A stretch of DNA of 63,832 nucleotides, counting the filler, from Reclinomonas americana ATCC 50394 (taxonomy: Eukaryota), in NCBI GenBank assembly GCA_048213135.1. It is 9 parts of 3 records of this genome, joined end to end, with 100 filler letters (N's around TTAATTAATTAA, not from the genome) between each part and the next. Parts side by side here need not be neighbours in the genome. Positions count along the whole stretch, not along the records: positions 1 to 15,673 come from PS015036.1; positions 15,774 to 25,393 come from PS015036.1; positions 25,494 to 32,287 come from PS015036.1; positions 32,388 to 37,016 come from PS015036.1; positions 37,117 to 49,297 come from PS015037.1; positions 49,398 to 51,705 come from PS015037.1; positions 51,806 to 56,520 come from PS015037.1; positions 56,621 to 59,223 come from PS015038.1; 1 more part is not named here. The stretch is one strand, 5' to 3'. A program made the position numbers and the translations under genes. Shown here piece by piece: positions 1,328 to 63,139 of this stretch. Below the pieces are notes generated by a model. The model saw nothing but the letters and a program-made list of their open reading frames with translations, was not told the origin of the DNA and ran no database searches. The first letter of the stretch is position 1; the number at the start of each line of letters is the position of its first letter.

Positions 1328-4300
1328 ATGGAGCTTGACAAGCTCGAAGGTTTGTGCATGGCATACACGCACATACACGAGAGCACGTTGACAAGAGAGA
1401 GAGAGTGTGTGTGCGCGTTTGTGTGAAAGTGGTGGCCATTGCGCGCTCACTCTTGTGTGTGTCTCACAGGCGTGGAGGCTGGTGTGCGATGCTTGACGCA
1501 CTGCCCGCCTGCACCATCGCGCGTGCTTGCTGCAGTCTTGTCGCCCTCACAGCAGCAGCAGCAAAGAGGACGACGCGACTCGTTGTCGAATCGACCAGGC
1601 GTGGCCTCGCCCAGTGCGATTGTGACGACGGCCGATGTGTCGGGAGTGGTGTGGGTGGCTGGTCGATCGGGAGGCTTGATTAACATTCTGAGCACGGTGT
1701 GTGTGTGTGTGCAGACTGGTGTGATTGCAATGATGGTGGTGACTCACTCACACACACATGCACGCTTGTGTGTGTGGTGCAGAACGGCGATCCACTGCAC
1801 TCGATTCACACGGGATCGACGCATGTGTTGTGTGCGGCATCGATTGGCAAGTATGTGTGGCTTGGATTGGCGAATGGGCAGGTGCGACATAGCCACTCTC
1901 TATCTCTTTGCCACACACACTCACTTGCCGCCGGCTGTGCGAAGGTGTCGGTGTACGAGGCCATGACGGGGGCGTTCATTCGGTTCCTGATTGGCGTGCG
2001 AGTCAAGGGCGGCATCAATTCGATTCTGCCCGTCGTCTCGTTCAATCATGTGGGCGATCCGTCGGGCGATGTGTGGCTGGCGTGCACCGATTGGAGCACG
2101 CGCATTGTGCACACGGACACGGAGCGCGAGACGCAGGTCATTCGTATGCACTCCAATCTGGTCAGCTGCCTGTGCAAGTCGGCAAAGTATGTTTTTAGTG
2201 GCAGCGCCGATCATGTGATTTTGTCGTACGACATTCGTACGCACGATGTGCTGTGTGCGTTGGAGGGACACGCCGATGCGGTGGTGGCGTTGTGTGTGGA
2301 CGAGCAGTTTCTGTACTCGTCGTCGGCCGATGGACGGCTCATGATTTGGGATGCTGAGGTGTGTGCAAGAACGGCAAAGTGAGCCCATGAGATCCTGTCC
2401 TCCTCACTGCCCCCCCTCCGCCCTCCCGCAGACATTTGAGCCGACGCACGGCGTGTGGATGTTTGAGCAGCCGGTGACCTCGTTGCTGTCGTTCACCGGT
2501 CTTTTGTGGTGTGGCTCGTACCAGCAGATTGCAATCATTGATGCACGGGTGCGTAGGCTGCTCTGCTTCTGCATTGCATGCTTTGACTGACACACACCGC
2601 GCAGAGCAATGTGGTCAGCAAGTCGCGTCAAGTATCAACGTCATGGGTGCTGTGCATTGCGGAAGTGTGTGAGTTGGTGTGGATGGGCGACGGCGAAGGC
2701 AATGTGCACGTGTGGAAGAGTGAGGTGCGTCTGTTTGCGAGCGACTCTTACGCCTTGCTTTCGACGCTGATGTATTGGTGCTTGTCAGCTGGAACTGGAG
2801 AGAACGCCGGCTTCGCCGGCGCCAGTGTGGATGCGGGCTGGCGCACGCTCGATTCCCGAAGACACGAACTTTGCTTTTCGTGCCAACCGCTCGCCTGGTC
2901 AGCACCGAAAGCAGCTGGGTCGAGCGGCCAGCACCTCCAGTATTGTTGCGTGCACTCCACCCGCACGATATTGTGCAGTGCATGTTGTGTGACATGTGGT
3001 TGTCTGTATATAGAGTGCCATGTCGTCGGCACGATCGGCGGCTGCCGAGTTCTCGGCGGAGCAAGTGGCGCTGGCTCGTCTGGCTGGACACGTGCTGTTG
3101 CGCGCCACACCCGACGTGGTGTGGAGTTTGACACGTGCCGGTGCAACAGCCACATTAGTGCGGTCGTCGGTGTGTGCTCCCGCCGCCGCTGTTCCAATCG
3201 TCTCCATTGCTTTGTTCCTCACTCGCTCGTCCACCACAGACTTGCGAACTGATCCAGCAGGTCGACATTCTCACTGGGCACGTCATGTGTGCGTGCACAG
3301 TGGGACCGTACGTGTGGACTGGACTCTTGAGTGGCGAGGTTCGATTTCACGTGTTCTCCACCCAACGAATGCTGGGCTCCGCTCGCTCACTCACGTCGGC
3401 TGGTTCACAGATTCCTGTCTATGACGCACACACGGGTGAATTTGTGCGCAAGCTGCGACACGCGCATGTACCTGGCGGAATATTATGCATGCTTGCCGAT
3501 GTGGAGGAGGGGCGCGATCGCAAACTGTCGGGAGTTTCGTCTCTTTTCCATATCTGCTGCAGTCGACACACACGCGTGTTCGCTGACAGCATTCTCGCAG
3601 AATGTGTGGATCGGTGGCGTCGACTGGGCGGTGCGCATCATTGCGCTGCCGTCGTGTCGCGAAGCACGTTGCATTCAGAAGCACTCCGATCGTGTCACGT
3701 GTCTAGCGGCGAATCGCGATTTCGTGTTCTCCGGCAGCGCCGACTGCTCCGTGTTTGTTCACGACAAGACGGTGCGCGCGCCGGTTGATTGGACTCCGCC
3801 CCCACATGTTGCGACTGACACTCGATTGTTTATTCGTCACAGACGGGTGCCGTGGTGCAGTCGTTTGAGGGCCACTTGTACCCCATCACCGCGCTGTTGT
3901 GTGTCGACGATTTGCTGTTCTCGGCTTCGGGTGACGGATACCTCATGGTGTGGAACTTGAAGGTGTGTTGCTCGTGGTCTTCCTTCACCTCCATCTTTCC
4001 TTACAGCTCAATGTGCATCGTTGACGCACAGACACTGCCGCTGCCGCAACCGCAACCGGGCGCCTGGCTGTTCCCCGACGCTGTCACTGCCATGGCATTT
4101 TTCGAGAACGAACTGTGGTGTGCACATGGCGAGCGCATCACGCTGATCGACATTGAGGTGCGTCTCGTCGCTTTGTCCACTCACTTGTGCCATTGCGTGT
4201 GCTCATGCGTGTTGGTGGACTGCAGTCGGGCACAGTGATTCGCTCGCATCGCTGCTCAACGTCGGCCATCATGTGCATGGAAGTGGTCGACGAGTACGTG

Positions 4301-4566
4301 TGGACGGCCAATCAGGAGTGCGAAGTGCAGACGTGGCGGGAGGTTTGTGCTGTGTGCTTCGTCATTTCAAAATGTATCCAGTCGTATTGATTGTGTTGCA
4401 GAGCTCGATGAGTAACTTCCCCTCATCGCCGCCGCCGGTGTGGACGGCGGCGGAGGACTTGCCGAATCGGTTTGTCGCGCTGACTGGAAAGAGCTTGACG
4501 GCCATGTTGGTGAGTTTTTCTGAGTCTGTGATGTCGTTCTAGCAGTNNNNNNNNNNNNNNNNNNNN

Positions 4567-4612
<46 letters not shown>

Positions 4613-7600
4613 CCTCCCTCTCTCTCTCTTTCTTACTCGCCCACTCTTCGTGATCCTCGCAGCGCCAACGCAAGGCCCGCATCCAGGAGCGTGCTGCCGC
4701 CGAGAGAGCAGCAGCAAGCGCCTCTGCGGGAAGTGCTGCTGCTGCTGCTGCCGCTCCTTCGCCGTTCGCATCGCCGGCCGTCAAGATCACGCCGCCGACG
4801 CCGTCTGCACCCATGACGCAGATGCAGTTTGAGATTGACGAAGAGCTGCCGGAGGCGTCGGCAGTGAGACGGCCACCGCTGCGCACCGCAGTGTCTGAAC
4901 CGAGTCTCGGGCTGGGCGTGCAGCGGTCACTGGAGCGCAGGGCCTCCGACGACGACGAGCTGATGCTCTCCGACAGCGGCTCCGAGGCCACCGAGGTCAC
5001 CGCCCCGGTAACTGTGGCGGCACCGTCGGCCGCCGTCGTGCCCGTGTTCACCACTGGCACCGATTTGTGGCTGATCGACCGCAGTGGCACACATGTGCAA
5101 GTTCATAACACGGTGGTGCGTCACTGCTGCTCACCCTTTTTCTTTGCACCTTCGCGCTGACGTGCCTCTCTCTCTCTCTCGACGCATGCCACCAGGACAA
5201 CTCTGTTCGCGTGGTTCCGATCGATTCACCGCGTGTCTTGTCTGCGGCGCTGGTCAGCGACCACGTGTGGTTGGGTTTGGAGAGTGGCCAAGTGGCCGTG
5301 CACGATGCCACCACGGTCGCCTTCCGTCGCCATCTCAGTCAAGTGTTTAGTGAGAACGGTGTTTTGTGCGTGTTGCCGGTGCCGAGTGCAGGCAGTGGCC
5401 ACGAGTGGAGACCTGCAGTTGCGCAACAACATCCACGGTCACCTCTTCTTCTTGTTCCTGCAGACCTCTGATGCTCTTCGCGTCCTTTGATGACAGACGG
5501 TGTGGCTCGGCGGTGCTGATAGCACGATTCGCGTGGTGGCGCAAAATACCGAGTCCATCATCCGCATTCGGCGCATCCATCGCGGTCCCGTGAACTGCCT
5601 GTGTTTCCATGGCAATTATCTGTGGAGCGGCAGTGCCGATTCGACCATTGTGGTGCACAATTTGACCACGGAGACGGAAGACTGCGTGCTGGTGGCGCAC
5701 GAGGATGCGATTGTCGACCTGCGGGCCGATGAGCGACATCTGTACTCGAGCTCTGCCGACTGCCGGCTGGTTGTGTGGCGGCGTAGCAGTCAGGGAGTTG
5801 CGTAGCTCGATGTGGCGTCTCAAGTCGAATTTCTGCGTACTGACTTTGGGACCACGCAGTCCATCTGCGAACCGATTCGCGAGTGGCGGTCACCGCTGCC
5901 ACTGACGACGCTGTGCCCGCGCGATCACACACTGTGGAGTGGCTCGCATCGCACGGTGCACGCGATCAGCGTCGACAGTTTGCGTGTGGTGGAGTCACAT
6001 GTGGTGTCGTCGGAGTGGGTGCTGCGAATATTACCGTCGAGCAGCGGTGGAATCTGCGTCGTCGATGGTGGTGCAGCGTTGCACTTTTTTGACGAAGAGG
6101 TCTGTCGGTATCGTTCCTCTGTGAGGCGCTTCAACGCAGTGCGTTCTTAACTGATTCGTGTGCAGCACGAGCACTTGGAGGAGACGGCGTCCGCCGCGTC
6201 GCTGCGCGAGATTCCAATGGAGCACGCGTGGTCGACGCAGCATTTCCAGTTGTGCTCGTCGCGTGAGGAGGTGGTGTTGCCGGCGGACCGCGAGCATTTC
6301 TCTGCGTTTGCCACACAGACCATTGGACTCGCGCCGCTGCCGGCCGGCGAGCATCATCACAATGGCGACGTGGAGCAGGCCGAGGCGGTTGACGATGAGA
6401 TCGAAGTACACGTGTCGGCATCCCCCGTGGCAGGGTCGGCAGCCGTAGCCGCCATGCGAGATCGACAATCGGCTGCCGAGGACACGCCAGCCCCGCGCAT
6501 CACGTCACCGCAAGGCCGGCATCAGCGACAATCGTCACCACCCGACCGAATCCGAACAACCATGGGCGGTGACGACGAGAGCGGCGAACACGAGCTGGAG
6601 GTCGACGGTCCGCGCTCCTCCTTTGAGGATCAGCACAATGTCATTATGCAGCTGCGACAGACGTTGCTGGCCGCCGATTCACCCACGGGTCACTCGGCGG
6701 CACAACAGCAGCGCATTGCCGCGCTGCTTGATCGACTGGAGCAGTCGCGCCCGGCTCACCATCACGACGACGAGGACAGAGTCGCCGGCGCTGGCAGAGG
6801 CCAGAGTGCCGGCAGTGTTGCCGAGCGTCCGAGTCTGGACGACTCAACGCTGCAACGGTACCGTGAGCCGGCGGCGCCAGGCAGCACGACAGCAGCAGCA
6901 GCGGCGGCGGCAGCAGCAGCGGCAGCAGTCCAAGAGGAGCTGGAGGTTGCCAAGAGGGAGCTGTCCAGTAGCCTGGCTCGCCTGGAAACGCAGGAGATGG
7001 AGACCAAGTTGCGCGGCAGTGGTGATGTGTGTTTTGTCAACGGCGACAATATCTCACCTTTGTGTGTGTGTACACAGAAACGCGCTGGCCCGACTGCAAG
7101 CGCAGGTGGACGACGCACACCGAAAGGGTGCGGCGCGCGAGGCCGAGTTGCTGAGGCAGCTCGACGAGGCGCGTGGCCAGGTTCGCGAGCGCGATGCGCG
7201 CATCCGAGAACTGAGCACGCTGGTGGAGGCGGAGCGATCGGCGCGCAATCTGCTGGAAGACGAGCTGGCGGCCGAGCGAATCGCCAAGGAGTCTAATGCG
7301 AGTGGGGCGGCGCTCGCGCAGGAGAATGCTGAGCGGAAGCGCGCACAGCTGGTGGATGAACTCGACAAGGTACGAGGAGGTGGTGCTTTCTTCACCGACA
7401 GCGGTGGTGGTGGTCGCTCTTTGTACAAATGAACGAGCGAGTTGCCGCGGAACACGATAGTGGGGATCAGAGGGGGAGCGGGGCGCTGGGAGGGTGGTTG
7501 AGATGATGATGGTCGGCTCATGGTGTGTGTTGTTTTGTTGTTGTTTTCTCCCTTGTGGCGCATGTTGCACGTGCAGATGAGGAAGAACATGGAAGTCCAG

Positions 7601-13600: not shown

Positions 13601-15673
13601 ATGCCCTGGCACGTAGCTTCACCACGTGTACGGATGAGATGCAGCACTCGCTGGAAGAGTACACGACCATGGTGTCGCAGGTTCCTATGACACATTGTGT
13701 GTGCGACTGTGGAGGCCGGAATGTGCTTCTCATATCGTCTTGCGACGCACAGAAGGACCGCCTATCCGCGGCCCTGGAGGTGTCGGAGAGTGCGCGGAAT
13801 CGACTGTCGGAGGAGTTGGAGCGGGTGCGAGTGGAGCGTGATCGTTTGCGTGGAGACCTGGAGGCTTCGGTGGCCACACTCGAAAAGCTGGTCGACGCCG
13901 ATGTGTCGCTGGAGGGCACTCCACTGGCCACTCGCGTGCGCAGCCGTGAGCAGTCGGATCTGCTGGGCCGCGGCACCATTCTCTTCCACCACCTGCGTCG
14001 CACGAGCACTGCAACAACAACAACCACAACAGCAGTAGCATCATCGTCGACGACGACGACGACGGCGGCCGAGAAGCGCTACATTAGCCCGATTCGTAGC
14101 AGTGGCAGCGTAGCGTCGGCCCGATCGCCGTCGCCGAGTCTGTCGCCTCACTCGGTGGACTTTTCTCGGTTGCCCGAACTGCGACGTAATGTGTCGCCAC
14201 TGCCGGCGCGTTCCAAATCGCCGAGCAGCGTTGATCGCGCCTCGGTGCGACCACTCAGCGACTTGGTGCGCATGCGCGAGCTTATCGACCAGCAACAAGC
14301 GCGATTGGACGACCGGCAGCGTGAGCACAATCGCAAGTACAATCAACTGTCCACCGTGCAGGACCCCGACGAGCGCCGACATTTGCGGCGCGAGTACGAT
14401 CAGCACCAGCGCGAATTGCAGTTGGTTCAAGAGGTGATTGCGGAGCAACGTGCGTCACTCGAGCGGCACTCCCACGGCACGCCGGTGGTGGATCCGTCGC
14501 CGATTTCACGCACCAGCATCAGCGCCTTTAGTGTCGGTGTGGAGGACGAGTTGGCTCTCGGACTGCGTGGGGTGCGCTCAAGCGAGCGCAGTACCTCCGA
14601 GTTCCGTCGGCGTCCGAGCTTCCACGCAGAGGCCGGCGCTGCTGCAGGTGGTGGTGGTGGTGGCGGCGGCGGCCTTGGTCTGCGCTCTGCCTCGCCTCCG
14701 CCCAGCGTGCTGTCGAATCGCTCCGAATCTTCCAGTCGCCGTCGCCGCGAATCCTCGCAATCGCCGCTGCACAGACCTCGAGCCCGCGAGGCACCGGTGC
14801 CCGCTGCCTTTGCGCCGTTGCGTGCTTTGTCGATGATTTGTTTTTTTTACGCGTGTGCGTTCGCTGACTTGTCGGTGGTGGTGTTGCAGGCCGCGGGGCG
14901 GTGCGACTGCCGCCGAGACGCCGTTGTCTTCTGGGCCTCCTCGTCGATTGCACGACGATCTGTCGTCGTCAATGGACACACTGGAGATGCTGCCGTCACG
15001 TGACGTGTCGACCGGCAATGGAAGTGCGCGCCGCACCACGGTAACCAAGGTGGTGACGGATCCGGCCAGCAGCGGCACCGGCACCGGTACCACGACCACC
15101 ACCACGACCACGACGGTGACGACGGAAACCGAGTTGCCGCCCGACATGCGTGCCGACAGCATCCATGTCGCGGCGCCGCAGGTGCACTTGGCCGGCGCCG
15201 GTGGAGCCGACGAGCGGTCGGTGATGTCTGTCAGCAGTGGCGGTGCCGGTGACATTAGTGAGATGAGCGGCCGACGCGCGCCCTCACCCGTGTCTAGCGT
15301 GGAAGGAGGCAGCGTGCAGATCGCCCGACCGGTATTCAGCGGCACTGGCACCACCATTCGCTCGCAGAACGTCACCAGCAGCAGCAGTAGCAGCAGCAGC
15401 AACACGATCCGACAAGTGGTGCGTGTCGAGACTGTGGAGACCTCCAGCGACGCCGCTGTTGTTCGAGGTGAGAGAGTCTCTCATTCTCCGTTGCCTTTGC
15501 TGGCCTCTAAAAAAAAAAAATGGTGTTGTTGTGAATTCGCAGGGAGCCACGATGCGCCCCCGCCACCGTCGCCACTGTTCTCGGCGCTCAGCGAGCTGCG
15601 TGAATCGCGGCGCACAATCGCCAACATGCGCAGCGAAATCAGTCGTCTACAAGACGATTCAACAAGAGGGGGT
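1328..15673 (+). CDS. Giant (~4000 aa) protein: three tandem WD40 beta-propeller modules, a >2000-aa coiled coil and a Ser/Thr-rich tail; 3'-partial
   Basis: ATG at 1328. About 28 phase-compatible GT-AG introns. WD motifs such as LEGHADAVVALCVDEQFLYSSSADGRLMIWD, FEGHLYPITALLCVDDLLFSASGDGYLMVWN and LVAHEDAIVDLRADERHLYSSSADCRLVVWR. Heptad E/Q/R/L/A-rich region ~6930-14460, including one 4212-nt exon (8681-12892). Confidence 0.88.
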
Positions 15674-17245: not shown

Positions 17246-20200
17246 TTACGTGTTGCGGCCAAAGGCGGCCCACGAGTAATAGACCTCGGTGAGCACCGCC
17301 GGGCCACTCTCGGCCAAGCACACCTGCAGACCAGTGGCCAGCACGTTGGCGGTGGTCAGGTTGAATGAGACGCCAATGGTGGCAGCCGCCTGCTGAATCG
17401 CCCAGCCGCGAGCAAACACCACGGCCGTTGGGGCAGCGGCGAACACGTCGTTGAGGTCGAACGTGATGGTGACGCAGGCGCCCGGAGCCACAGTGCCCTC
17501 ACCGGCCAGCAGACCGTAGCCCGAGGCAGTGCGCTTCGGGAACGACATGTACTGGTAGGCCAGGCGAGCGACGCGCGTTTGCTTACGCACGTCGACCTGG
17601 TGGCGGAAGTTGCGGACACCGGCAGGGAACTGAATGCTGCCCTCGAACTCGGCCGGCTTGGTGCGGTCAATGTACAAGTGGCGCATGCCAGTCACAATCG
17701 ACGGCGGGCTGGTGTACGGGCCAATGCTGATCGACTGGTCCTGCAGGCGGTGCGTCGGCAGGGTGGTCGAGGCGTTGCTCAGCTGGTTCCACCAGTCACG
17801 GCGGCCCTGCGACGAGTAGCGGATGGTGCCGTCCGAGGTCAAGCCAAGGTCGCGAGCAGTGTACTGCGCCAGCACGTTGATGTTGAGCGACGTGATCGCC
17901 GTGTCCTCGTAGGTGATGCAGCGGGTGGTGAGCGACTCCTCGTCGAACGAGATGGCCGAGCAGTAGACGCGAGCATCCGAGTTGTCAAAGCCAAAGCCAG
18001 ACACACCAATCATCAGGTACGGCTTGCCGGCTGTTCACGAGCAGGTAAGAGCAAAGAAGAGATAATAAATAAGCGTATTGCAAACGACGGCCACGCACCA
18101 AAGCGATCAGCAAAGTTGATGGTCTGCAGCCAGATGCGGGTGCCGGACGGGATGCCAGCACTGGAGCCAGTCGCAAAGTTGGACTGTGTGAACGACAGGT
18201 TGGCAGCCGAGGAGACCGGCAGCGTCTGGAGCTCTGTAATGTGGGTTACACGTGAGTAAAATCACTTCAAGAAGCGGAAACCCACACGAAACGAAGAGAC
18301 GCAACGAGAGCCAATGCTGATAATGCCCTTGCTGTTCTCGTCGAGCTGCCACAGAGCCACCGGGGTCGCGCCAGCGTCGGCGGTCGCCTTGTAGCAGATC
18401 TGGAGAGCGCGAATGGTGGTGGTGGTGGAGCTGACCGACACGCGGGCCGAGAACGAGTCGTAGTAGCCCGACGAGCCGTCAAACTGCTGGTAGCCGAGGC
18501 CGGCACCAATGGCCGACACGGTGACACCAGCCGGAGTGGCGCCAGTGCAAGGCTGGCCCAGCTTCTGCAGCTTCTCGAACGTGTACGAGGCGCAGTCCGA
18601 CAGCTGGCCGTGGATCGAGGCCACAAAGGCAGTGTCGACGGCAGCGTGCACCGGGAAAGTCCAGTTCGGGATGTTCACTTGAGCTGTTTATGTGAGGGAA
18701 AGTTAGTAAACATGGATGCACACAAAGGTTGCTGACTTTAACAAACAACAAAACAAACCAGTGATAAACACATCGGCGAGCTTGACGTACGAGTGGTTGA
18801 CGTTCCAGCGAATGCACAGCGGGTACGAGGCAGTGCGAGCAGCGGCAAACTGAGCCAGGTTGCAGCCAGAGCGAGTGTCAATGGCCAGAGCAATGCTAAT
18901 GTCGGTCGGCGGCGCCAGCGGCGACACGTCGACACCGCTCGGGTCCACATCGGTGTTGGTCAACAGAGTCGGCACACCACGCTCACGCTCCGCCAGAGCG
19001 GCGGCGGTGATGCAGTTGGCGTCGGTGGTGATGACAAACTGCGGAGTCGAGGTGGTGGGGAAGTAGTTGCCGCGGACGGTGATCGGGACGTTGAGCACGC
19101 CCTGCGACACGGTGATCGAGGCCGGGCGCACCGGGGCCACTGCACAAGACGGGAAAAACGGGCGCGAGGTGAGCAACGTGAGAGAGACAACAAATGCAGA
19201 CGAGGGAATTGAAGCGAACCGAGAGCCAGGTTGCCGTTGATGACCTTCTGGATGGCGGAGCCAGTGTTGACGCAGAGGCTGAGGCGGTTGAGGTCGGTGT
19301 TGATGCCCGACGCGTTGAAGGTGAACAGCACGTTGGTGCTGCTGGTGAAGCCAAGGGTGGCGGTGATGCCGCTGACAATGCTCGAGGCCGAGCACGAGTC
19401 GTCCTTGTTGACGGTGAGGGTCATGCCGGCGGCGAAGCCAGACTCGTTCACCACGCCAATCGTGTGGTCGCCATAGTTGGCCATGATGTAGAGCACAGCC
19501 GGAGACTGGTAGCACGGGCCCTTGATCTCCACAGTCGCACCAGTGTAGGTGAAGAAGGTGGGGTAGGTGGTGGTCGACGCGCAAATGTACGCCGGGGTGC
19601 CGTTGGAGACGGTGGTACCACCGGTGCCGACGTTAATCGTGTTGGGTGAGCCGCCATTGGCCAGGGTCGGGATGGCGCCGCCGTTGGTCATGGAAGTGGC
19701 CGGGGTAGCCGGGACGAGGCAGTCAATGCCGGTGAACAAGTTGTACGTGGAACCGGGGAAATCGGAACCAGTGACGTCCACAGTGGTCGTGAGGCTGCCG
19801 CTGCACTGGCCCGACAGCGCAGTGATCGGGCTGCGCAACAACAGAGGTGGAAATGCCAACAAAATGAGAAAAAGGATGCACCCAAAAAATGCGTGATGGG
19901 GAGGCGAGCGAGGGAGACTCACCGAGGAGTGCGGATGCAGGCAGAGCCAGTTTGCACCACCAGACCGTTGAAGCTCCAGTTCTGCGCACCGTTGTTGCCG
20001 CGCTCGCACACGAACCACGAGCCCGGATTGCGCAGCAGTGAGGTGTTGGAGTTCAGGTTGAAACCGGCACCAAATGACATCGTCAGAACAACGTTGGGCT
20101 CCTCAATGTCGCAATCCTGGTTGTTGAAGGCGGCGAGTTGCGGAATGCTAGCCGGAGACAACGACGGGCCACCACCGCCCAACAGGATGATCTGGGGCTG

Positions 20201-21315
20201 GTTGACGCAGCCGGCAGTCTGGATGAAGATCGGTGCCGTGGGGACGATGCCGTTGGTCAAGCAGCTGGTGTCGTGAACGACCGTGGCGCCAGACCAGGCG
20301 AGCTGCGAGACGCCCACAGCAGCGCTCGCCGATGTGCAAATGTAGAACACGGTGGTTCCGGCCGAGGCAGTCTGATCGTAAACCAGCTGGCCAGTGCCGG
20401 CAGTGACACCATTGGTCAGCGTCAGCGACGTCGGGCCGTTGCCGTCGGCAGTGCAAGCAGCAGAGGTGCGCACGCGCACAACAGCCGGGGCCAGGTTGGA
20501 GCCCTGGACGGTGATCGTCTGCGGGGCCGGCGCGATGAACCCACAACCAGTCTGTGCATTCAACTTGATCTGACCCGGGCTCTTGATGCACGCCGCATTG
20601 GCGTCCACGCGCGAGGCGACCGAGATCCAGTTGATGTTGTCCGAGCTCACGCAGAGGAACAGGCCGCTGCAGCACACGTCATCAGACAACTCGCAGGCAG
20701 GCGCGTTCTTTCAATACACACGAACCTGAGTGCCTCCTTCTGGTTCGAGGTCTGGAACACGAGGCTGGCCGCAGTGGCCGACGCAGCACCAGTGTGCGAG
20801 ACCTTAATGCCAGCGACCTCCGAGTTGCACACGGCACCGGCGGCGGTGCCAGTGGCCGCGTAAAACACCTTCCACAGCTGAGTAGAGGTCGGCAGGTTCG
20901 TGGCACCCACCACCGACACTGCCTGGTTGGCCAAGTAGGCGTTGCAGTTGGAGCCATCAGGCACCAAGTTGATGGTGCCAAAGGCCGGAGGGAACGCTGT
21001 GAGTGCACAACGGTCAATTTCGCGCCAAAAAATCACAACGGTCACATGCACGCGCTCTCACACAAAAAAACAAGTGCCTCGCTCACTCACTCAACTCACT
21101 CACACAAACCACACACACACGCGAAACAACAGCAGTAACAAAGAGAGAAACAAGGACGCAAGAGAGCTCCACATTGCCACAGAGGGAATGTGCGGTGGAC
21201 GCGCGCGAAAACACACACACAGATAAAAAAAAACGCAACTTGGCTGGGCCAGTGCTGATGTTGCGACGACGCACAACACGCACAGGCTCACCAACAACCA
21301 TGTGGTGGACCGCAT
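17246..21315 (-). CDS. Large secreted protein (~1100 aa): signal peptide, ~105-aa Cys-patterned beta-rich repeats and three C-terminal H-type-lectin-like domains (paralog A)
   Basis: MRSTTWLLVSLCVLCVVATSALAQ signal peptide. Seven GT-AG introns. Repeats end in Y/F-x-C...(W/F/Y)-(T/S/N)-G. C-terminal motifs FADRFAGKPYLMIGVSGF, GPYTSPPSIVTGMRHL and FAAAPTAVVFARGW...EVYYSWAAFG. No transmembrane segment seen. Confidence 0.8.
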
Positions 21316-21756: not shown

Positions 21757-23964
21757 TCAGTCGCTCGCCACTAATGCAGCAGCCTCGCCACCATTCGCCT
21801 CCGCCGCTGAGCTCCCAGCAGCTGGCAGCTCCTGCTCTGCGGCACTGGCGGCCTCGGCCAACTGCTCCATGGCTGCCGCGGCTGTATCGTCATTGCCGCC
21901 GGTTCGCTCGTCTGTATCCATTGGTTGTGCCTCACCCTCACCCTCACCCTCACCGCCGGCCGCCACAGGTGCTGCTGGAGGTGCTGGTGGATGTAGCGCC
22001 GCCTGCCGATGATTCTGCAGCTGCTGCAACTGCTGCAGCTGGTGCGGCGCAATGTTGTGGGCGTGCGGGTGATCGCGGTGCGTCAGCGGGTCGTTGGCGC
22101 AATCCGGTGCCGGCTGCGTCGTGTCGCTGAGCCACTTCATGAAATCGGGGCAAAACGGAACGCCCCAGTACTCAGAAGGTGACTTGTGCTGCGCTGCGTC
22201 GACCATGTTTCCGCCATTGGCGGCGACGGCGGCGGCGGCAGCAGCAGCAGCGGCGGTAGCAGCGGCAACATTGGTACCATTGACACCGACAATCGTCGGT
22301 GCATTGTTGGCCACTGGCGATGCACCGTAGACTGCGAGGTGTGGCGCGGCACTCGACGACACCGTAATGTAGGTGCTGGGCGGCACCGTCGAGGATCCCG
22401 CCGAAGACGATGAACCGGCGGCGGCGGCCGCAGCGGCTGCCGCGTGCAACGCTGCCACTCCCGTTTCGTTCTCCGATAATGGGCCTCCGCGGACTCCCAA
22501 CGCCGCCGCCGCCGCCGTTGCTGATGGCTGCGATGCTGACGGAAGGGTGTCCGCCTTGGCCGCTCCCCGACCCTTACGGCCAGCCGCCGCACCGCCGGCG
22601 GCTTTCTTGCGCCCCGCTCCCGCCACTTGCGTCGGCACACCATAGTCACCAATGTTGCCTCCGATGACGGCCGCCTGCGCCGCCAGCTGTGACGGGACAT
22701 AGTACGGAGTGCCATTGGCGTGGTACGACACACCAAACGCGCCTGCGGAGTGGGGTGTGAGAGAAAAAAACAATATGTCATTCCATAAACAACTGCACGC
22801 AACTGGAGGGGAACACCACCGATGGACTGGACGATGTGGCCGCAGCAGCGGCAGCAGCAGCGGCGGCGGCGGCTGCTGCAGCCACCGCAGCACTGTTCTG
22901 TGCGTTGCCGTACAGCTCGGTCGCTGGTCGATGAATGTGCGCCGGCGTCGGCATCACCGAGATCTCGGCCACCGGCACCACCAAATCCTCGTCGGCAAAC
23001 CATTCGAACTTCATAAACAACCGCTCGTCCTGCTCCTGCAACTCCTCAAAGAACTGTAGCGGGGCGGGTTGAGTAATGCAGGCGCCGTCAGTTGGCGATG
23101 TGAACAAACTCACGCATACCTCGTCGACAAAAGCACGGACATTGCGCGGCTTCTGATCGTCTTCTTCCTCGTCACTCTCCTGGTCCTCGGCGTGCTCGTT
23201 GAGACCCGACAAGCGATGCACCACCGCCACTCTCTGCACCAGATCCTTGACGAAAAAGGTGAACTTGAACGAGTTGCTCTTCACCACCGACGAGTAGTAG
23301 TCGGAGGTGTCGACAAACGGGCGAGCCGCCAGGCCCAGCACCTCAAAGCGAGCCGAGTCGTACGCCGTCAATGGTGCCACCGACGATGCGAGATCGGAGT
23401 CGGCGATTCCGGCGGCTGCGTTCTTGCGGCCACGCTTTGGCGGCTGTTGACACAAACACACACGCACAGGAGGGTCAGTGACACGGGCCGTCATTTTCTT
23501 GTGGTGTGTTGCCGAGGACGAGCAACGCAACTGCGGCAGGCGACGGCAACAATTGGAAATTCTGCTCGGTGATGGGGTCGCCGAGGCTGCGATGTTGCGA
23601 GGCCACCACCTGGATCTCCGTCACCGGCTCCGGCAGGCACCGTGCGCGAACCCTCTTGTTGAACTCGTAGCAAAAGTCGACGAGCTCTTGGAATTCGACG
23701 GGCGACAGGCGCTTGCCGTCCTTTAGCACCGCGATTCGCACAAACGGAAATCGCTCCAAATCACACGCCTCCAGTCTGCGAGAGAGGCGGTGAGTGTGGC
23801 GGGCAAGCAAAGGTGAGACAACCGTCGACGCAACTCGTGGTACGTCTCGGCCAGACTCTGGCACGACGAACGCAGCGTGACAAAGCCTTCAGGGAACGGC
23901 TCAAACGCCACACCCAGCGCGCCACCGCGCAGCGGAATGAATCCCACGACGCGCAGCACACAAC
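21757..23964 (-). CDS. Hypothetical protein with a globular N-terminal part and an Ala/Gln-rich low-complexity C-terminus; first exon not identified
   Basis: Five exons join in frame via GT-AG introns (donors at 23834, 23531, ~23119 and 22803); stop at 21757-21759; NLS-like PPKRGRK. Confidence 0.7.
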
Positions 23965-29091: not shown

Positions 29092-29559
29092 ATGGAGCCA
29101 AGCGACAGCGCTGCGGCTCCTGCAGCCGTTGACTCTGGGCAACCATCACCATCACCACCTCCTCCACCAATGGCCGCTGATGCACCTGCGCCTCCCTCCG
29201 ACGCGGACATGCCCGACTCTGCGCATTTCCCGCCGGCCGCGTCGACGACCCCCGCGACAGTGGACGCGCCCGTGCGCGATGCCCACGACGAAGAGGACGA
29301 TGGGTTCCCTGCTGTGGAGGCCATGGACGCCGATGACGATGATCTGGCGCCACACACATTGCCGCTGTCGACATCGACTGTTGGTGGTGGCGGCGATGCC
29401 GGCGATGATGATGAGTATACGAATGTGCTCAGTGCAGCAGTGGCCGAGTTCACTGCTGCAGCGGCGGCGGCGCAGCAGGCTGTTACCACGCAGCAGCCGT
29501 ATCGCACGCGGATTGGTCGAGTTGAGTTTGACACGCGCAGAGAGAGAGGGAAAGGGAAG

Positions 29560-39810: not shown

Positions 39811-39859
<49 letters not shown>

Positions 39860-40589: not shown

Positions 40590-40641
<52 letters not shown>

Positions 40642-41191
40642 CCCTTCCCCCTCCCCCCCCCCTCTCCCCCTTCCCCTTCCCCTTCCCTTTCCTCACCTCC
40701 CCCTTTCCCACCACACCACAGGGACGTGCAACAAGTGGAGGACACTGTGGAGGCCATGCAAGAGGCACTGGAGGACCAAAAGGAGATTTCCGAGGCACTC
40801 GGCAACCCGATTGCTGGCGCCGACATTGACGAGGACGAGCTGCTGGCCGAGTTCGAGGCCGAGGTCGAAGAGGAGCAGCTGGCCGACCAGCTGGCCGACA
40901 TGTCCGCCACCGACAGGAGACCTGCGGCGGCGACAGGAGCCTCGGGCAGTGCTGTGTCGCGCGATGAGGCTGCGCGGCGTCGCGAGGCGGAAGAGGAGGC
41001 TGCATTGGCGGCCTTGTCCATTGGCAGTGGACCTATTGGTATGTGTGTGTGTGGGTGTCTTGCTTCATAGAAGAGATAATGTCGCTCCCACGCTCACTCC
41101 TCCATCTCACTCAGCGGCACCTGCTCAACCTGCCGCACTATCACGCGAGGAGGAGGAGCTGAGGCGTCTCGAAGCAGAACTCGCTCCTTAA
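38167..41191 (+). CDS. SNF7: ESCRT-III subunit of the Snf7/Vps32/CHMP4 family (4 exons)
   Basis: SIEEIRNTLDMLEKRESVLEKRI...KKDKK|GALAILKQKK...LRHNTV|DVQQVEDTVEAMQEALEDQKEISEALGNPIAGADIDEDELLAEFE...EEEELRRLEAELAP-stop. Confidence 0.92.
39340..39805 (+). repeat. Degenerate ~18-nt tandem repeat (CCACTCGCTCATTCTGCT) within Snf7 intron 2
   Basis: Many copies of CCACTCGCTCATTCT visible; includes a ~55-nt internal duplication (39341 vs 39541). Confidence 0.85.
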
Positions 41192-42788: not shown

Positions 42789-43189
42789 GTTCGGCGTGCC
42801 TGCAGGTTCCTTGACTCACATTCACTTTCTCTCTGTGTGAGTCTGCACGCTCCCTTCTCTCATTCTCTCTCTCTCACACACACACACACGCACACATTGC
42901 ACGTGCGTCAACATGAGTCTGCAAGTTCCATGACTCAACATCTCTCTGCGTTCATGCAATTGCAGGTTCCATTCTAACTTTGCTCCTCTTCCCTCCCTCC
43001 CCTCTGCCCTCCCTGCCTCCTTCACGCAACAACAATATACTCGGGCAGAATGTCTTCCCCGTCGACTTGCACGCCCCCACCATTCGCACTCTGCAACGCC
43101 GCCAACTGCCCCCGAATCGTCGCCTGCAACTGCCGCGCCTGCGCAGAGTCCGGATCGACAGGAAGCGTCAACACCTCGTCAGAAGACAT
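41431..43189 (-). CDS. PWI-like N-terminus and RGG-rich putative RNA-binding protein (Nab2/ZC3H14-like); internal exons missing or unresolved
   Basis: First exon ...QARQLQATIRGQLAAL...DGEDILPEYIV resembles the Nab2/ZC3H14 PWI start (DxxLPEYI). RGGFRGGFRGGYRG and RGRGG repeats. C-terminal NMSWVAP and LVWVNP motifs. Confidence 0.6.
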
Positions 43190-46298: not shown

Positions 46299-47426
46299 AT
46301 GAACCCGGAGGTGGAGGTGGATGTGCTCTCGCTCATCCTCAAGTACCTCACCGACAAGGGCTTTGATCAGAGCACAGAAGTGATTCTGCGCGAGGTCAAA
46401 GGTCACTCTCACACTGCCTCTTTCCCTCCCTCTCTCTCTGACTGTGTGCGTCACACTCATTGCTCATTGATACAGCCATGTCCACCATGTCCACCACGCG
46501 GTCCTCGGCCTCCACTGATGGAGCACTTGGCAGTTGTGTAACACACACACTCTTCCTCTCTCTCTCTCTCCCTGCCTCTCTGTTTCCCCACGCGCACACA
46601 CACACACACTGCGCGCGCGCGTGTGTGTGTCTGTCAAAGTGTGTGTGATGGCGCTCTCAACTCGCGCTCTTTTTTTTTCGTGCTTACACTTATACGCGCG
46701 CGTGTGTGTGTGTGTGTCTTTATACACACAGATGCACTGCGTGAGGTGTTGAGCGCGCGATTGGCGGCTGCTGTCAAGAGCAGTCAAGGTCAGTTGTCTC
46801 GCGTGTCAAGCTCCTCCTCTCACTCTTACACACACAAGAGTGCTCACTCTCTGTGTCTGTCTGTGTGTGTGTCATGCAGATGCAGAGTTGCGTGGGGGGA
46901 ATCGACGTGGTGCCATGGCAGCCTGTATCACACTCTTTGCACAAGAGACAGAGAAAGAGAGAGAATGCTCACTGTGTGTGCACACAGTCGGACATCGCCG
47001 AAGCTTGAGGTCATTGAGGAGCGACCAGGTTGGTCACACTCGCACACATTGATCACTCAGTGTGTGACTGATTGTGCGATCTCTCTGTCTCAGCATCCAA
47101 TGGAACGCATGCGACATCGGGGTTGCCTGCTCGTGAGGTGCTTCCCTCACGCTCTCTCTTGTTCCCCATCTCTCTCTTGTGTGGAGAAGCTGATTTGCAA
47201 GAGGGAATCGCAGAATGTGTTCGGTAGCCACTCGCCACTGGACGAGGTCGAGGAGGAGGAATATCTCAAGTCGCATGTCAGTGGGGTGCAGAGTGGGGCG
47301 GCGAGTGCGGCGGCGCCTGCTGCGGCGCATGATGCGGTGAGTCGTGCTCGGGAGGACAGGGTGGAGGCAATGGGAAGGGGTGGGCGAGGGGAAGGGATGG
47401 GCAGAGTTGTGTTCGCGTGTTTTGAA

Positions 47427-56747: not shown

Positions 56748-57610
56748 CTTGACCAATACCACTGCCAATGTTATCGAGCGTGTGGCCCGGGAAGCCACCC
56801 CACGACAACGAGCCGAGTCCAAAGATCACACCGGCGAACGCGTTGTACGCAATACCACCGTATCTGAGATCGCGATTCGCCGCGTCAAAGACGTCCTTGT
56901 GGGCGCTGTGCGTGCGCGGATCGACAATGATGACGCAGGCCAGCGTGCCGTCCACCTTGGTGTTCACAAAATCGACGGCGGCAGGCATGAACTGCGCCGC
57001 GTCACCGTGTCCCACGAGAGTGGTGATGGCCAGCACCGGGCAGAAGGCCTCGCGGCAGAGCGCGTGCTCGCCCTCCTCCGTCGGCACGTCGTCGATCCTG
57101 TGGTGTGACGACGGGTGTCAGGCAAAAAATGACGAGCCACGAAATGGTGGAGGTGGGAGCAGACGCAACAGCAGCCACGGCAGGTGATTCTCCGGGTTGG
57201 TGCCAGGGAGAGGCTCTGCGCGCAAACTCTGCGTGAGACAAAGAAAAAATGACTCGCATGACACACATGCAATTAACCCGTGTCGATGGCGGTCGAGCCC
57301 GGATACTTGCCGCGGAATGCCTCCCATCGCTGCTTGGCTCCCGGGTAGTAGCTATCAATCAAAGTTAGCTATCATGCGTGCGTGCATTCAGGTGTGGAAA
57401 GGCAGGTACGCAACGCTGGGCGAGTGCGCGTGGCGGCAAACACCTTGCGCACTTCGTCAACGAATTGCTCGCGCTGCGGCCAGTCGCGGTCCAGCACCAG
57501 CACCTTGCCGGCAATGCAGCTGCGCGTTGCAAGAGACGTGAGGAATTGAAGGCAATCAAAGAGGTGAGCATTGAGGACGCAACTTGAACGACAGGTTGTT
57601 CGTCACCATA
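56748..57610 (-). CDS. NAD-dependent aldehyde dehydrogenase (bacterial-type subfamily), internal fragment of 5 exons
   Basis: MVTNNLSFN|CIAGKVLVLDRDWPQREQF...RPA|YYPGAKQRWEAF...|...HLPWLL|IDDV...EAFCPVL...GTLACVIIVDP...LRYGGIAYNAF...WGGFPGHTLDNIGSGIG; includes the catalytic Cys (FNC). Confidence 0.88.
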
Positions 57611-59387: not shown

Positions 59388-60861
59388 TTGTTGCCGACCT
59401 TTGTGGAGACCAAGGCCTCGCAGAGCATCACCACACGCTTTGCGCATCCCTCGAAGAACAAGGAGCGATGCGCCAACAATGTGATTGTGTGGACTCCAGA
59501 GGGGCGTCGTTTGATTGCCGGCAACGCCAAGGGCGAGTTCACCCTGTGGAATGGCTCTGCGTTCAACTTTGAGACCATTCAGCATGCACACAACATGCCC
59601 GTGAAGGCCATGGAGTGGAGCCACAACGAGGTGTGGATGATCTCGGGTGACAACGCCGGCGAAATCAAGTACTGGCAGACCAGCATGAACAATGTCAAGG
59701 AGCTGCCGGAGGCGCACACGCAGCCGGTGCAGTCGTTGAGGTTCGTGTATATGCATGACTGGTGTGCGTACGAATGTTGCTGAGAGCGAGGGTGTGGGGC
59801 CACCAGCTTCTCGCCCACCGACATCAAGTTCGCGTCGGGGTCGTCGGATAGCGTGGTGAAGATTTGGGACTTTGAAACGTGCACTGCCGAGTGTGAACTG
59901 CGTGAGCATCGTGCCGATGTGCGGTGTGTGGCCTGGCACCATCGCAACTCGATCATTGCCAGTGGCGGCAAGGACCACGTGGTGAAGCTGTGGGATGCGC
60001 GAGCGGCGCAGTCCATCAACGACCTGTTGCGTCAGTGCTTCTCGCTTGTTGCGAATCACGTGGCTGATGATGCGTTGTGGTCGCAGTACTGTGCACAAAG
60101 ATTCGGTGTTTGATGTCAAGTGGAATCTCAATGGGGTGTGGCTGGCCACGGCGTCGCGCGACGGCACCGTCAAGATCGTCGACATGCGCAATCTGAAGGT
60201 GCTGAGCATCCACCGTCGCTCCAACAATCCCGGAAACGATCCGCACGTCAATTGTTGCGTGCTCTGTGGAAGGGATTTGCGTGTATCGTGTGCTTTCAGA
60301 GTCCATTAACAGTGCGTGAGTGCAGCCGTCTCGTGGCATCCCTTCCACGAGGATCTGTTTGCCAGTGGGGCGCATGACGGATCCGTCATGTTCTGGTTCG
60401 CCGGCTTGGAGGAACCGCAAGCGGCCATCTACAGGGCGCACGAAGACGCTGTGTGGGATGTGGCGTGGCATCCAATGGGACACATCTTGGGCTCCGGCAG
60501 CAAGGACAACTGGATCAAGTTCTGGGTGCGCAACCGGCCCGGCGACGACATGATGGACCGGTACAGCCGACTGGAGGTGCCCAAGAGCATTTTTGCGCCC
60601 GAGNNNNNNNNNNNNNNNNNNNNNNNNNNNNNNNNNNNNNNNNNNNNNNNNNNNNNNNNNNNNNNNNNNNNNNNNNNNNNNNNNNNNNNNNNNNNNNNNN
60701 NNNNNNNNNNNNNNNNNNNNNNNNNNNNNNNNNNNNNNNNNNNNNNNNNNNNNNNNNNNNNNNNNNNNNNNNNNNNNNNNNNNNNNNNNNNNNNNNNNNN
60801 NNNNNNNNNNNNNNNNNNNNNNNNNNNNNNNNNNNNNNNNNNNNNNNNNNNNNNNNNNNTA

Positions 60862-60894: not shown

Positions 60895-60902
60895 TGTTGT
60901 TG

Positions 60903-60957
<55 letters not shown>

Positions 60958-61799
60958 TGCACTTTTCGTTTCTCACCTTGCATCCTAGTCTCCAACTCGG
61001 CCGTGGCCCACATGCCGGCGATCCCTGGTCTCGGTTGGGGCGGCCGTGCCAACGACTTTTACGACTCGTCGTCGTCATCGTCGTTTGGCGCTGGCGCCGG
61101 CGTCAGCGGTGGCGCGCCTCCGCCCCCCGCGCCGTCCAACGGCTACCCACCACGCTCCTACCAGGGACCGGGAGGTGGTCGTGGAGGACCGCCGGCACCA
61201 CCAAATCACTACGGAGCCTCACGCGGGGCGCACATCAAGGAGGAGGGTGGTCACATGCCGCCAGGAGGTCCGCCAGGTGTGCCCTACGGTCGGCCGCCCA
61301 TGCCACCGCACGGTGACGGACGAGGTGCGATTTTTGTGCGAGTGTTAGTTTTTTCTTGTTCTCACTCCCTGCTATTCAGGCGGTCATCCGCCACCACCGC
61401 CGCCGCCACCACCTCCGCCGCACTACAACATGGGTCAGTACATGCAACAACAGCCGCCTCCTCGACAGGGACCGCCACCACCGAATTACATGCACGGAGC
61501 GCCTCCACCACCGCCACCACCACCACCGCCGCAACATGGTGGCGGGTGGGGTGGTCCGCCAAACAGCATGATGCAAGGACCACCGCCACTGCCTCCACCA
61601 CCACCACCATATGGCCATGGTCTTCCGCCACCGCCGCAGCCACCACCATATGGGTGAGTCGGGTGTCTGTTTCAGATGTTCATCTCCCGACTATCTCACT
61701 CTCCTTCTCGTCGACAGTGGCCATCGACCGCCGATGCCCATGCCGCCACCGCCGCCGTCACAACATCACATGAGCTCGGATCATCCACCTGGTGTTTAG
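59388..61799 (+). CDS. WDR33: Pre-mRNA 3'-end processing factor WDR33/Pfs2/FY; 5'-partial
   Basis: WTPEGRRLI...[20 protein letters not shown]...WSHN...[11 protein letters not shown]...SFSPTD...[14 protein letters not shown]...[10 protein letters not shown], followed by a Pro/Gly-rich C-terminus. Confidence 0.96.
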
Positions 61800-61912
61800 C
61801 GCTGAGCAGAAAGAATGAAAAAGAAAAAAACAATGTCGAATCGTTTATCATTCATCGTCGACAGTGCGCGACTCCCTGAGCAGCGTGGCCAGCAAACCGA
61901 GTGCCATCATCG

Positions 61913-63139
61913 CTACACTGCTCCGGTGATGCGACTGCGATCCATCTGCGCCCGGTAGCCCTTGACCGACTTGGCCACCGAGCGACCGGCGCCGCACGAA
62001 CGGCAGTCCACTCGATGCAACCGAGTCGCTGCGTCCTTGCCGATCACCGTCAGCAGGGACTGACACGTGCTGCATCGCACGTACTCCTCGATGTATCGGC
62101 GAAGAAGCTCCGCCATGTCCTTCGCCTGTGCGCGGGGGACGCGGAGAATGAGTGACACCAGTTCGATATTCACATGCAGTTCTGCCAAACAATACCTTGT
62201 AGTGACCGCGCAGGAGCAGACCGCCGCGCATGTCCACACTGCCCGTCGTCGCCAGCTCGAAGAGAATAAACTGCAGCAGGTGCTGCTGCCGATCCAGCGG
62301 CGTGGACGTCGACGTGACGGTCGTTGTCGTCGTACCGGTCGTCGTCCGAGCCTCCAACCTGTTCGATATATGTGCATCAGCATCAGCAATCATGACTTCT
62401 CTCTCTCTTTCTCTCGACCGAGCAGCACGCAACGCCTCGCAGAACAGGTGAAAGTTGACAAAGCAGCAACGCCGACCGCCCACTCGCTCCATCACTGGAG
62501 CCGTGCGACTCGGCGTCGTTGTCGTCGATCGCGACGAAATCGAGCAGTTGTCTGCATCGTCGAGAGACGCAGCCGCCACGGGCAGCGCCCTGCGCGGCAC
62601 GTGATGTGCCGCAGACGTCCTCGCCGCCATGGCCACCATGAGACGGCTCACCAGAGCGCTGTACGAGTACAGGCCCGACATCACGTCCTCTTCGGCATCC
62701 TCGTCGTCCACAGCAGTCGTCGCATCGTCTCCTCCTGTCGCATTCATCGCCTTCTTGCCTTCTCCACCACCACCGCCTGCGCCCTGCTTCTTGTCTTCGA
62801 CCTCCTCTGCGCCCTTGTCGGCCTTCTTGCTCGTTGCGGTGCTGCGCTTCTTCTTCTTCTTCTTCCCGTCGAGAGCCAAAACTGGCACCTCGACATCGAC
62901 TGCCTCCGGCGACTGCTTTGCCGGCTGAAGAATGCCCGGTCCACGCTTCTCACCACCGCCCTCACCACCGCTCTCCGAGTCACCGACGGATGACATGTTG
63001 TCTCCGCAAGCAGCATCCTGTCGGAAAAAGAGTGGGAGGTGTGGGAGGTTGTCAGTGAGCAAGATTTCGGAAATTAGAAGAGAAAGACAACAACAATGCT
63101 CACCGCTGCGGCACATGCTGCAGCTGATCTGCAGTTCAT
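61913..63139 (-). CDS. EIF2S2: Translation initiation factor eIF2 beta-like protein (divergent); the start could instead be the ATG at 62996
   Basis: Poly-K box (GKKKKKKR), YSYSALVSR, PVMERVGGRRCCFVNF, HLLQFILFELATTGSVD, LRRYIEEYVRCSTCQS...CRSCGAGRSV...GYRA zinc ribbon. Confidence 0.85.

Follow-up and report, generated by a model that had tools for sequence, protein, structure and literature searches.

Does the intron-rich eukaryotic genome sampled by this stretch of Reclinomonas americana ATCC 50394 DNA (63,832 bases, referred to here as the window) begin its short introns with one kind of 5' splice site or with two? The ordinary donors of the window read GTGCGT, GTGAGT, or GTGCGC, often with C at +4. 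A sequence-only reading of the window had listed 25 further sites, most of them GTTGCGT, that look like ordinary donors with one extra T, so that the conserved G lies at +6 rather than at +5. These shifted donors were said to be frequent, to follow only exons that end in a base other than G, and possibly to be recognized by the U1 small nuclear RNA (snRNA) in a shifted register in which the G at +1 of the intron replaces the missing exonic G at -1. Use of a non-canonical U1 register has been described for disease mutations and, among human splice sites, for a small minority. The analysis presented here, which compares DNA and protein sequences, confirms the observation that the GTTGCGT donors behave as a real second donor class. 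The reading that N/GUUGCGU is a second high-information donor class read by U1 one position out of register is given a probability of about 0.55.

The heptamer and the last exon base

All 25 listed donors carry the heptamer GTT..G(T/C), with one extra T relative to the ordinary form; 18 read GTTGCGT, three GTTGCGC, two GTTGAGT, one GTTGTGT, and one GTTTCGT. Across the list, the heptamer hardly varies (T at +3 in 25 sites, G at +4 in 24, C at +5 in 22, G at +6 in 25, and T at +7 in 22), an invariance that is inflated by the picking of the list by pattern, and the base composition is near-uniform at +8 and +9. The last exon base is A, C, or T at every listed site, as had been reported, and the eight ordinary donors cited for comparison also read as described, with those at 33103 and 51126 sitting on the minus strand.

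The word GTTGCGT is more frequent than expected by chance. On both strands of the window it occurs 32 times against 13.2 copies expected under a third-order Markov model, a 2.4-fold excess. Approximately 14 copies lie outside the list, which is the background level, and the proposed donors therefore account for the excess. None of the 32 copies on the two strands is preceded by G (T13, A12, C7). Among the 658 copies of GTTG in the window, 92 follow a G, which gives a background rate of 14.7% (92/626) once the 32 GTTGCGT copies are set aside. Against this rate, the two-sided binomial probability of finding no G at -1 is 0.011 for the 32 copies and 0.042 for the 25 listed sites, and the total absence of G, taken alone, is only modestly significant. 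The claim that shifted donors occur only after a non-G base thus stands as a count (0/25 after G) but is weakly supported as an absolute rule, as a register shift would itself predict G at approximately 18% of sites.

Junctions placed by homologous proteins and domains

Several of the shifted junctions had been described as fixed by protein conservation. This description holds to the residue for four of them, at 60026 in the WDR33 gene and at 57583, 57414, and 57169 in a gene resembling aldehyde dehydrogenases, whereas the junctions at 39254 (Snf7), 31212 (PHD), and 60254 (WDR33) are placed at the level of the domain only. In the WDR33/Pfs2 gene, on the plus strand, the shifted-type intron at 60026..60086 (CT/GTTGCGT...CAG/T, 61 nucleotides (nt), phase 2) is bridged by a tblastn alignment in which AITTL/HGHKNT of the homologues aligns to SINDL/TVHKDS of the window with no gap. 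The family hidden Markov model (HMM) crosses the same junction, with coordinates 193-266 followed by 268-307. The next shifted-type intron of this gene, at 60254..60325 (T/GTTGCGT...GCAG/CC, 72 nt, phase 1), is flanked by exons that match the WDR33 HMM at 268-307 and 317-402; it is placed at the domain level and not to the residue because the junction falls in a variable loop. An ordinary intron of the same gene, at 59741..59806 (GAG/GTTCGT, 66 nt), provides a comparison, as it follows an exonic G and its spliced reading QSLSFSPTD is colinear with homologues, with HMM coordinates 77-195 and then 193-266.

Three consecutive shifted-type junctions in the dehydrogenase-like gene, on the minus strand, are colinear with homologues. 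At the first of these, 57520..57583 (AA/GTTGCGT...GCAG/C, 64 nt), the spliced reading MVTNNLSF[N]CIAGKVLVL agrees residue for residue with the homologues (MVENNGSFNCNAAKVLVL). The second, 57352..57414 (GC/GTTGCGT...ATAG/C, 63 nt), yields RP[A]YYPGA where the homologues read RPAYYPGA; the tblastn gap of exactly 21 residues equals the 63-nt intron, the removed stretch contains in-frame stops, and the HMM coordinates of the flanks abut (315-353 and 353-376). At the third, 57098..57169 (CT/GTTGCGT...ACAG/G, 72 nt), homologues have PWTLFPDVP and PWTLVPGVP where splicing gives the colinear PWL[L]IDDVP. Pfam gave no match to the exons of this gene at E up to 0.01, and the family is taken instead from a representative search; the best homologues cluster under the label 'acyl-CoA reductase-like NAD-dependent aldehyde dehydrogenase'. 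The gene also contains a weak-looking donor after an exonic G, at 57216..57277 (minus strand; CGG/GTTAATTG, 62 nt), which is directly followed by an in-frame TAA; from the conserved YP to this TAA, the sequence offers no alternative GT. At approximately 57297-57302 (minus strand), inside conserved Tyr-Pro codons of the gene, lies the word GTATCC; it is reminiscent of the U12-type donor motif and is coding sequence, not a donor.

Two further shifted junctions are supported by the domains that they interrupt. In the Snf7/CHMP4-like gene, the donor at 39254 (plus strand, GT/GTTGCGT) opens an intron, 39254..40721, that spans an assembly gap; the exons around it match Pfam Snf7 at profile positions 43-95 and 102-155 and also match the Shrub and CHMP4B chains in PDB. 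The window is two residues shorter at this junction than these homologues, and the support is consequently that of the domain. The intron at 31212..31278 (plus strand, ACT/GTTGCGT...GCAG/TGG, 67 nt, phase 0) lies inside a PHD finger, in which the upstream exon corresponds to profile positions 4-35 and ends after H-x2-C, and the last C-x2-C (CRMC) opens the downstream exon.

The gene for eIF2-beta, on the minus strand, harbors a shifted-type candidate intron at 62359..62433 (GC/GTTGCGT...AACAG/G, 75 nt) that has signals resembling those of an intron and belongs to the high-confidence set of the gene parse described below. The protein cannot prove splicing at 62433 because the 75-nt candidate is in frame and stop-free, and the candidate, if retained, would still be translatable. 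The exon that follows it adds a Thr-rich stretch of approximately 19 residues inside the eIF2-beta domain region. A second intron of this gene, at 62126..62195 (minus strand; AAG/GTATTG, 70 nt), has a weak-looking donor after an exonic AAG, and its spliced reading GHYK/AKDMAELLRRYIEEYV continues the eIF-5_eIF-2B domain; the junction is presumably colinear with typical eIF2-beta sequences.

The WDR33, dehydrogenase-like, eIF2-beta, and Snf7 genes together contain ten introns that are placed by homology or domain. Seven are of the shifted type and all of these follow a non-G base, a count that includes the junction at 62433, which the protein cannot prove; the other three all follow G. A G at the end of the exon seems nearly sufficient for a donor, as the intron sides of the donors at 62126-62195 and 57216-57277 are very weak.

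Class frequency in an exon-blind gene parse

A broader count of both donor classes was obtained from a dynamic-programming gene parse whose score combines codon usage with the bases on the intron side of the donor and the base at -3 of the acceptor, and which ignores the exon bases at the donor. Both donor classes were given to the parse by hand with equal weights; the parse therefore cannot prove that the shifted class exists, but it provides an unbiased readout of the base at -1. It over-predicts heavily, with 484 introns on the two strands, and the numbers given here are those of a high-confidence set of 63 introns of 45-130 nt in which both flanking exons beat any opposite-strand exon.

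In this set, G occupies -1 in 27/38 ordinary donors, 0/12 shifted donors, and 7/13 donors of other form, and the difference between ordinary and shifted donors has a Fisher p value of 1.1e-5. The 29 high-confidence donors that follow a non-G base comprise 12 shifted, 11 ordinary, and six other donors, and several of the ordinary and other parse donors in this position are evident false calls. The shifted class accounts for 12 of the 63 high-confidence introns, approximately one in five, and for seven of the ten introns placed by homology or domain, which agrees with the earlier view that it is frequent. Neither a signal-free gene parse nor unsupervised expectation-maximization on frame-bridging GT..AG pairs recovered any donor motif.

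Register of recognition

The exon ends of the 25 sites differ from those of ordinary donors in a systematic manner. At -1 they carry A14, T7, C4, and G0, and at -2 they carry G10, C8, T4, and A3; position -1 is best modelled by the ordinary -2 and position -2 by the ordinary -3, as if the exon ended in NA/G and not in NAG/. The log-likelihood of these exon ends is -63.6 when the ordinary model is shifted by one base, -90.6 when it is kept in the same register, and -72.9 under the exon background. On the intron side, positions +3 to +7 match the window's own +2 to +6 consensus, with T at +3 and G at +6 in 25/25 sites. GTTGCGT thus differs from the ordinary G/GTGCGT by one changed base and by a cut that lies one base upstream. 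Homologue colinearity and a canonical YAG acceptor at 60026, 57583, 57414, and 57169 indicate, at the level of DNA and protein, that cleavage occurs at the GU and not one base downstream. Because the exon ends look moved by one base, a shifted U1 register is favoured over one in which U1 stays in place and an intron base bulges.

In the proposed mechanism, the U1 snRNA would pair one position out of register at N/GUUGCGU. The intron G at +1 would fill the slot normally held by the exon G at -1, the U at +2 would be a single mismatch, and U+3, G+4, C+5, G+6, and U+7 would fill the slots of +2 to +6. Cleavage would still be fixed at the only GU by later steps that involve U6, U5, and Prp8, with a presumed hand-over to U6. 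Given such a shift of the U1 register, the exon G at -1 would be dispensable, and the exon would be expected to end in NA/ rather than in NAG/.

A number of observations weigh against this mechanism. The near-invariant C at +5 is unexplained by a standard U1, which would favour A, and it is stronger than at the equivalent position of ordinary donors (22/25 at +5 compared with 15/38 at +4, p = 1.8e-4), a comparison that is partly biased and inflated by the pattern-based list. This C suggests that whatever reads +5 prefers C, and a U1 with G opposite, as reported for Mastigamoeba balamuthi (bioRxiv 10.1101/2022.06.08.495308), is one candidate. The shift predicts G at -1 in approximately 18% of sites and none is seen in 25 (binomial ∼0.007). 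With a standard U1 (ACUUAC), two mismatches lie inside the shifted helix, whose strength does not exceed that of an ordinary donor without G at -1, so pairing energy alone does not explain the preference for the shifted form. The ordinary reference set comes from the noisy parse and includes false calls, one at 62239, which conflicts with the homology-placed donor at 62195, and two, at 11834 and 12522, inside an open frame of 1,638 codons. Finally, 11 of the 25 listed sites are frame-compatible only, and eight of these score weakly. The idea of the sequence-only reading, that the G at +1 replaces the G at -1 in a shifted U1 register, accordingly fits the exon ends best of the models compared but leaves the C at +5 and the complete lack of G at -1 unexplained.

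Searches for the spliceosomal RNAs themselves were limited to the window. Rfam gave no match there at gathering scores and, at E up to 0.5, no U1, U2, U4, U5, or U6. The relaxed threshold returned only low-complexity microRNA-like matches, one weak match to SCARNA2, and one weak match to a bacterial small RNA.

Alternative explanations

The preference for C, where a standard U1 would prefer A, and the near-invariance of the heptamer would both follow from a dedicated or altered snRNA. The U1 could be a variant, or be accompanied by a second U1 gene, with a 5' end that complements GUUGCGU (or GGUGCGU, G standing opposite C); it would form a full Watson-Crick helix and thereby define a separate class. 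U1 5' ends that have co-evolved with donors do exist, as the available text of one preprint describes Entamoeba, with U1 ACAAAC and GUUUGU donors, and Mastigamoeba balamuthi, with U1 ACGUAC and GUGCGC donors (bioRxiv 10.1101/2022.06.08.495308). The same text gives a standard U1 for Thecamonas trahens and the Mamiellales, whose donors nevertheless prefer C at +4; a changed U1 is thus not required, and the C preference in the window could, but need not, reflect one. The invariance of the heptamer, moreover, is partly an ascertainment effect of the pattern-based list, and we regard an altered snRNA as unlikely. A more specific form, in which a second U1-like or remodelled U1 is fully complementary to GUUGCGU and two intron classes of the major spliceosome are chosen by the last exon base, is considered quite unlikely. 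If true, the recognition of 5' splice sites would be naturally split in two across the genome, and no such split dictated by the last exon base is known to us elsewhere.

The intron side of the shifted donors is equally compatible with a bulge. U1 would sit normally at G+1 and U+2, either U+2 or U+3 would be extruded, and G+4 to U+7 would pair as +3 to +6 do in ordinary donors; GU-U-GCGU fits such a helix just as well, and a register with a single base bulged at +3 (or +2) has been validated in human, according to the available text of PMC4856993. The exon side, however, argues otherwise. A U1 in its normal register should keep G favoured at -1, as it is in 64-71% of ordinary donors, and G is found there in 0/25 listed and 0/12 high-confidence shifted donors; the same-register model also fits the exon ends worst (-90.6). 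A bulged register is for these reasons judged distinctly unlikely.

Selection might also act at a step after U1 recognition. The extra U would then aid pairing with the U6 ACAGAGA or the fit to Prp8 and U5 when the exon end cannot contribute, which would mirror the U5/U6 split in human, where two donor classes are distinguished by pairing potential with U5 loop 1 or with the U6 ACAGA in the part of PMC11732430 that is available. In the window, very weak intron sides are allowed after G (AAG/GTATTG and G/GTTAATTG), and the intron side is strongly constrained after non-G. Shifted donors are also less often in phase 0 than ordinary donors (7/22 compared with 30/51, p = 0.04), a phase bias that fits this explanation and hints at their use where codons leave no room for a G at -1. 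Later-step selection does not account, however, for the likeness of the exon end to an ordinary one displaced by a base, and according to the Discussion of PMC4856993, the 5' splice site has limited potential to pair with U6. We therefore consider it rather improbable.

That the sites are no splice-site class at all, and represent a chance or repeat-derived word or mis-inferred junctions, is highly improbable: 11/25 sites are frame-compatible only, some 14 GTTGCGT copies are plain background, and an unsupervised motif search on open-frame-bridging candidates recovered no donor signal, but this reading is largely refuted by the homology-fixed junctions, four of which are fixed to the residue and one of which has in-frame stops in the removed stretch, and it is opposed by the 2.4-fold word excess, by the lack of intron similarity beyond the heptamer, and by the contrast at -1 (p = 1e-5).

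Relation to known splice-site systems

Shifted and bulged U1 registers are experimentally established in human cells, where all validated non-canonical registers together represent ∼1.5% of 201,541 sites (PMC4856993, available text). Mammalian shifted-register sites, as described by Roca and Krainer 2009 (cited in the available text of PMC4856993), share with the donors of the window an extra U after the GU, a consensus that arrives one position late, a dispensable exon G at -1, and cleavage that is kept at the GU. Unlike in human, with 1.5% of sites in that account, the shifted form comprises 12/63 high-confidence and 7/10 placed introns of the window, and its motif is almost invariant and lacks G at -1. 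That one fixed shifted motif serves approximately a fifth of introns, and a larger share of the small set placed by homology, sets the window clearly apart from human in both quantity and quality. Sites with a bulge at +2 or +3 (Roca et al. 2012, cited in the same portion of PMC4856993) have the same intron side, with one extra nucleotide between the GU and the conserved G, but predict a retained preference for G at -1 that is not seen here.

Other lineages provide partial parallels. Those with GUGCGY donors, namely Mastigamoeba balamuthi, Thecamonas trahens, and the Mamiellales, resemble the ordinary donors of the window in that C is common at +4, and the available text of bioRxiv 10.1101/2022.06.08.495308 describes no GUUGCGU class among them. 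The human AG//GU (U5-leaning) and //GURAG (U6-leaning) classes display a trade-off between the exon side and the intron side like the one seen here but, as far as the available text of PMC11732430 goes, without a one-base shift of the motif. U12-type introns likewise present a second highly conserved 5' motif beside the main class; their motif is different, and the shifted introns have no conserved branch motif. A survey of diplonemid splice sites gives (G)/GTATG donors, which are unlike those of the window.

Searches of open-access text by motif string and by concept did not find a GUUGCGU donor class described, although a lineage-specific report may exist, and the motif string matched primers and small RNAs only. 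Within the limits of these searches, the statement that the form is not described as a major donor class agrees with the literature. If one fixed shifted motif serves approximately a fifth of the introns of an organism, or more, that organism would lend itself naturally to the study of how cleavage is chosen independently of the U1 register, and it would bear on the trade-off between exon-side and intron-side information and on the co-evolution of snRNAs with splice signals. In practical terms, a gene finder that has learned only one donor matrix would mis-call GTTGCGT introns.

Intron anatomy and excluded classes

Shifted and ordinary introns are alike in most other respects. Median lengths are 67 nt for shifted and 68 nt for ordinary introns, and the acceptors are mostly CAG in both. 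Loose YTRAY branch motifs are present in 8/14 shifted and 2/9 ordinary introns. With these 14 shifted and nine ordinary introns, stripped of their first 7 bases, blastn-short found no shared sequence beyond the heptamer; among 20 of the 61 matches between introns, lengths are 8-12 nt and the best E value is 0.013, and matches occur between the classes as they do within them. The shifted introns, with lengths of ∼60-90 nt, CAG ends, and loose YTRAY motifs, are taken to be genuine GT-AG spliceosomal introns of the ordinary U2 type.

Four other origins or assignments were rejected. A mobile, introner-like intron family is rejected, as the comparison of 14 shifted and nine ordinary introns shows no similarity along the introns past the splice signals. 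U12-type introns begin with /RTATCCTT and carry a conserved TCCTTAAC-like branch site near their 3' end; the shifted introns begin instead with GTTGCGT, have only loose YTRAY motifs in the branch region, and are not of the U12 type. A GC-AG reading, with the junction drawn as GTT/GCGT, is far from any GC-donor consensus. Sliding of the intron from an ordinary donor through a G-to-T change at +1 is rejected on the ground that the acceptor could not follow without losing its AG.

Remaining listed sites

Six of the remaining sites belong to the high-confidence set of the exon-blind parse. On the plus strand these are the introns at 2945..3013 in the WD40 gene (69 nt) and at 7008..7077, with the donor GTTGCGC (70 nt). 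On the minus strand they comprise the intron at 18234..18305 in the gene with an H-type lectin domain (72 nt) and three introns of a predicted gene at 21-24 kb, at 22743..22803 (61 nt), 23444..23531 (88 nt), and 23776..23834 (59 nt). A search for homologues of this last gene with the exon 23532-23774 found none.

The other sites are candidates of differing quality, and three of the 25 (3534, 5797, and 46533) are unused by the gene parse. On the plus strand, the donor GTTTCGT at 3534..3540 is frame-compatible only, with an option for a 67-nt intron, and GTTGCGT at 5797..5803 has weak coding support. The donor GTTGCGC at 5418..5424 is plausible, as splicing there yields ATSGDL[H]TIRVV, the continuation of a WD40 blade motif, and the exon that follows matches WD40. 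This donor is part of GTTGCGCAAC (5418-5427), a perfect palindrome that consequently scores as a donor on both strands. The parse uses GTTGCGT at 14817..14823 with a 73-nt intron whose flanks are not of high confidence, and GTTGAGT at 29521..29527 with an intron of 984 nt, N included, that would span an assembly gap and precede an exon in which the ARID domain starts. GTTGCGC at 31457..31463 is frame-compatible only. Two sites are doubtful, GTTGTGT at 46533..46539, where coding scores are negative, and GTTGCGT at 46887..46893, where the translated flanks are of low complexity and coding scores are again negative. On the minus strand, GTTGCGT at 21233..21239 is frame-compatible only, as is GTTGCGT at 43024..43030, for which the downstream frames are short. 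GTTGAGT at 27689..27695 (minus strand) is used in the parse with an intron of 786 nt, N included, which would span assembly gaps and has no homology.

Other features of the window

The window contains 5,298 N among its 63,832 bases, and the non-N portion is ∼59% G+C. It is made up of nine contigs of approximately 2.4-15.7 kb and is not one continuous locus. Eight identical joints, each consisting of 44 N, the all-frame stop linker TTAATTAATTAA, and another 44 N, connect the contigs at 15674-15773, 25394-25493, 32288-32387, 37017-37116, 49298-49397, 51706-51805, 56521-56620, and 59224-59323; additional runs of N are scaffold gaps. Because separate contigs are strung together by the linker, gene order across the joints is meaningless.

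The genes recognised in the window are a WD40 gene (1.4-5.8 kb), a gene with an H-type lectin domain, an ARID/PHD gene, the Snf7/CHMP4-like gene, a tandem WD40 array, the acyl-CoA-reductase-like aldehyde dehydrogenase, WDR33/Pfs2, and eIF2-beta. In a collection of 5.8 billion proteins, the closest matches are only ∼60% identical, and annotated proteins of this genome seem to be absent from it. A metagenome scan with a WDR33 exon returned only two loci, at 29% identity, and hence no relatives for a comparison of intron positions.

The window is also rich in repeated sequence. Microsatellites of (TC)n and (GT)n are very dense throughout, with 458 copies of TCTCTCT and 238 of GTGTGTG, and the CGTACGTA word is over-represented, as GTACGTA occurs in 26 copies compared with 1.7 expected. 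The open frame of 1,638 codons, at 8621-13534 on the plus strand, encodes a coiled-coil protein, and an exon downstream of it, at 13753-13944 (plus strand), has a weak, below-threshold Pfam match to the C-terminal domain of kinetoplastid FAZ1. The tandem WD40 array, at 43858-46366 on the minus strand, consists of near-identical repeat exons (VTPDGQHVVSGS.D.TVRVWSLASG) and duplicates one antisense GTTGCGT word, at 44045 and 45303.

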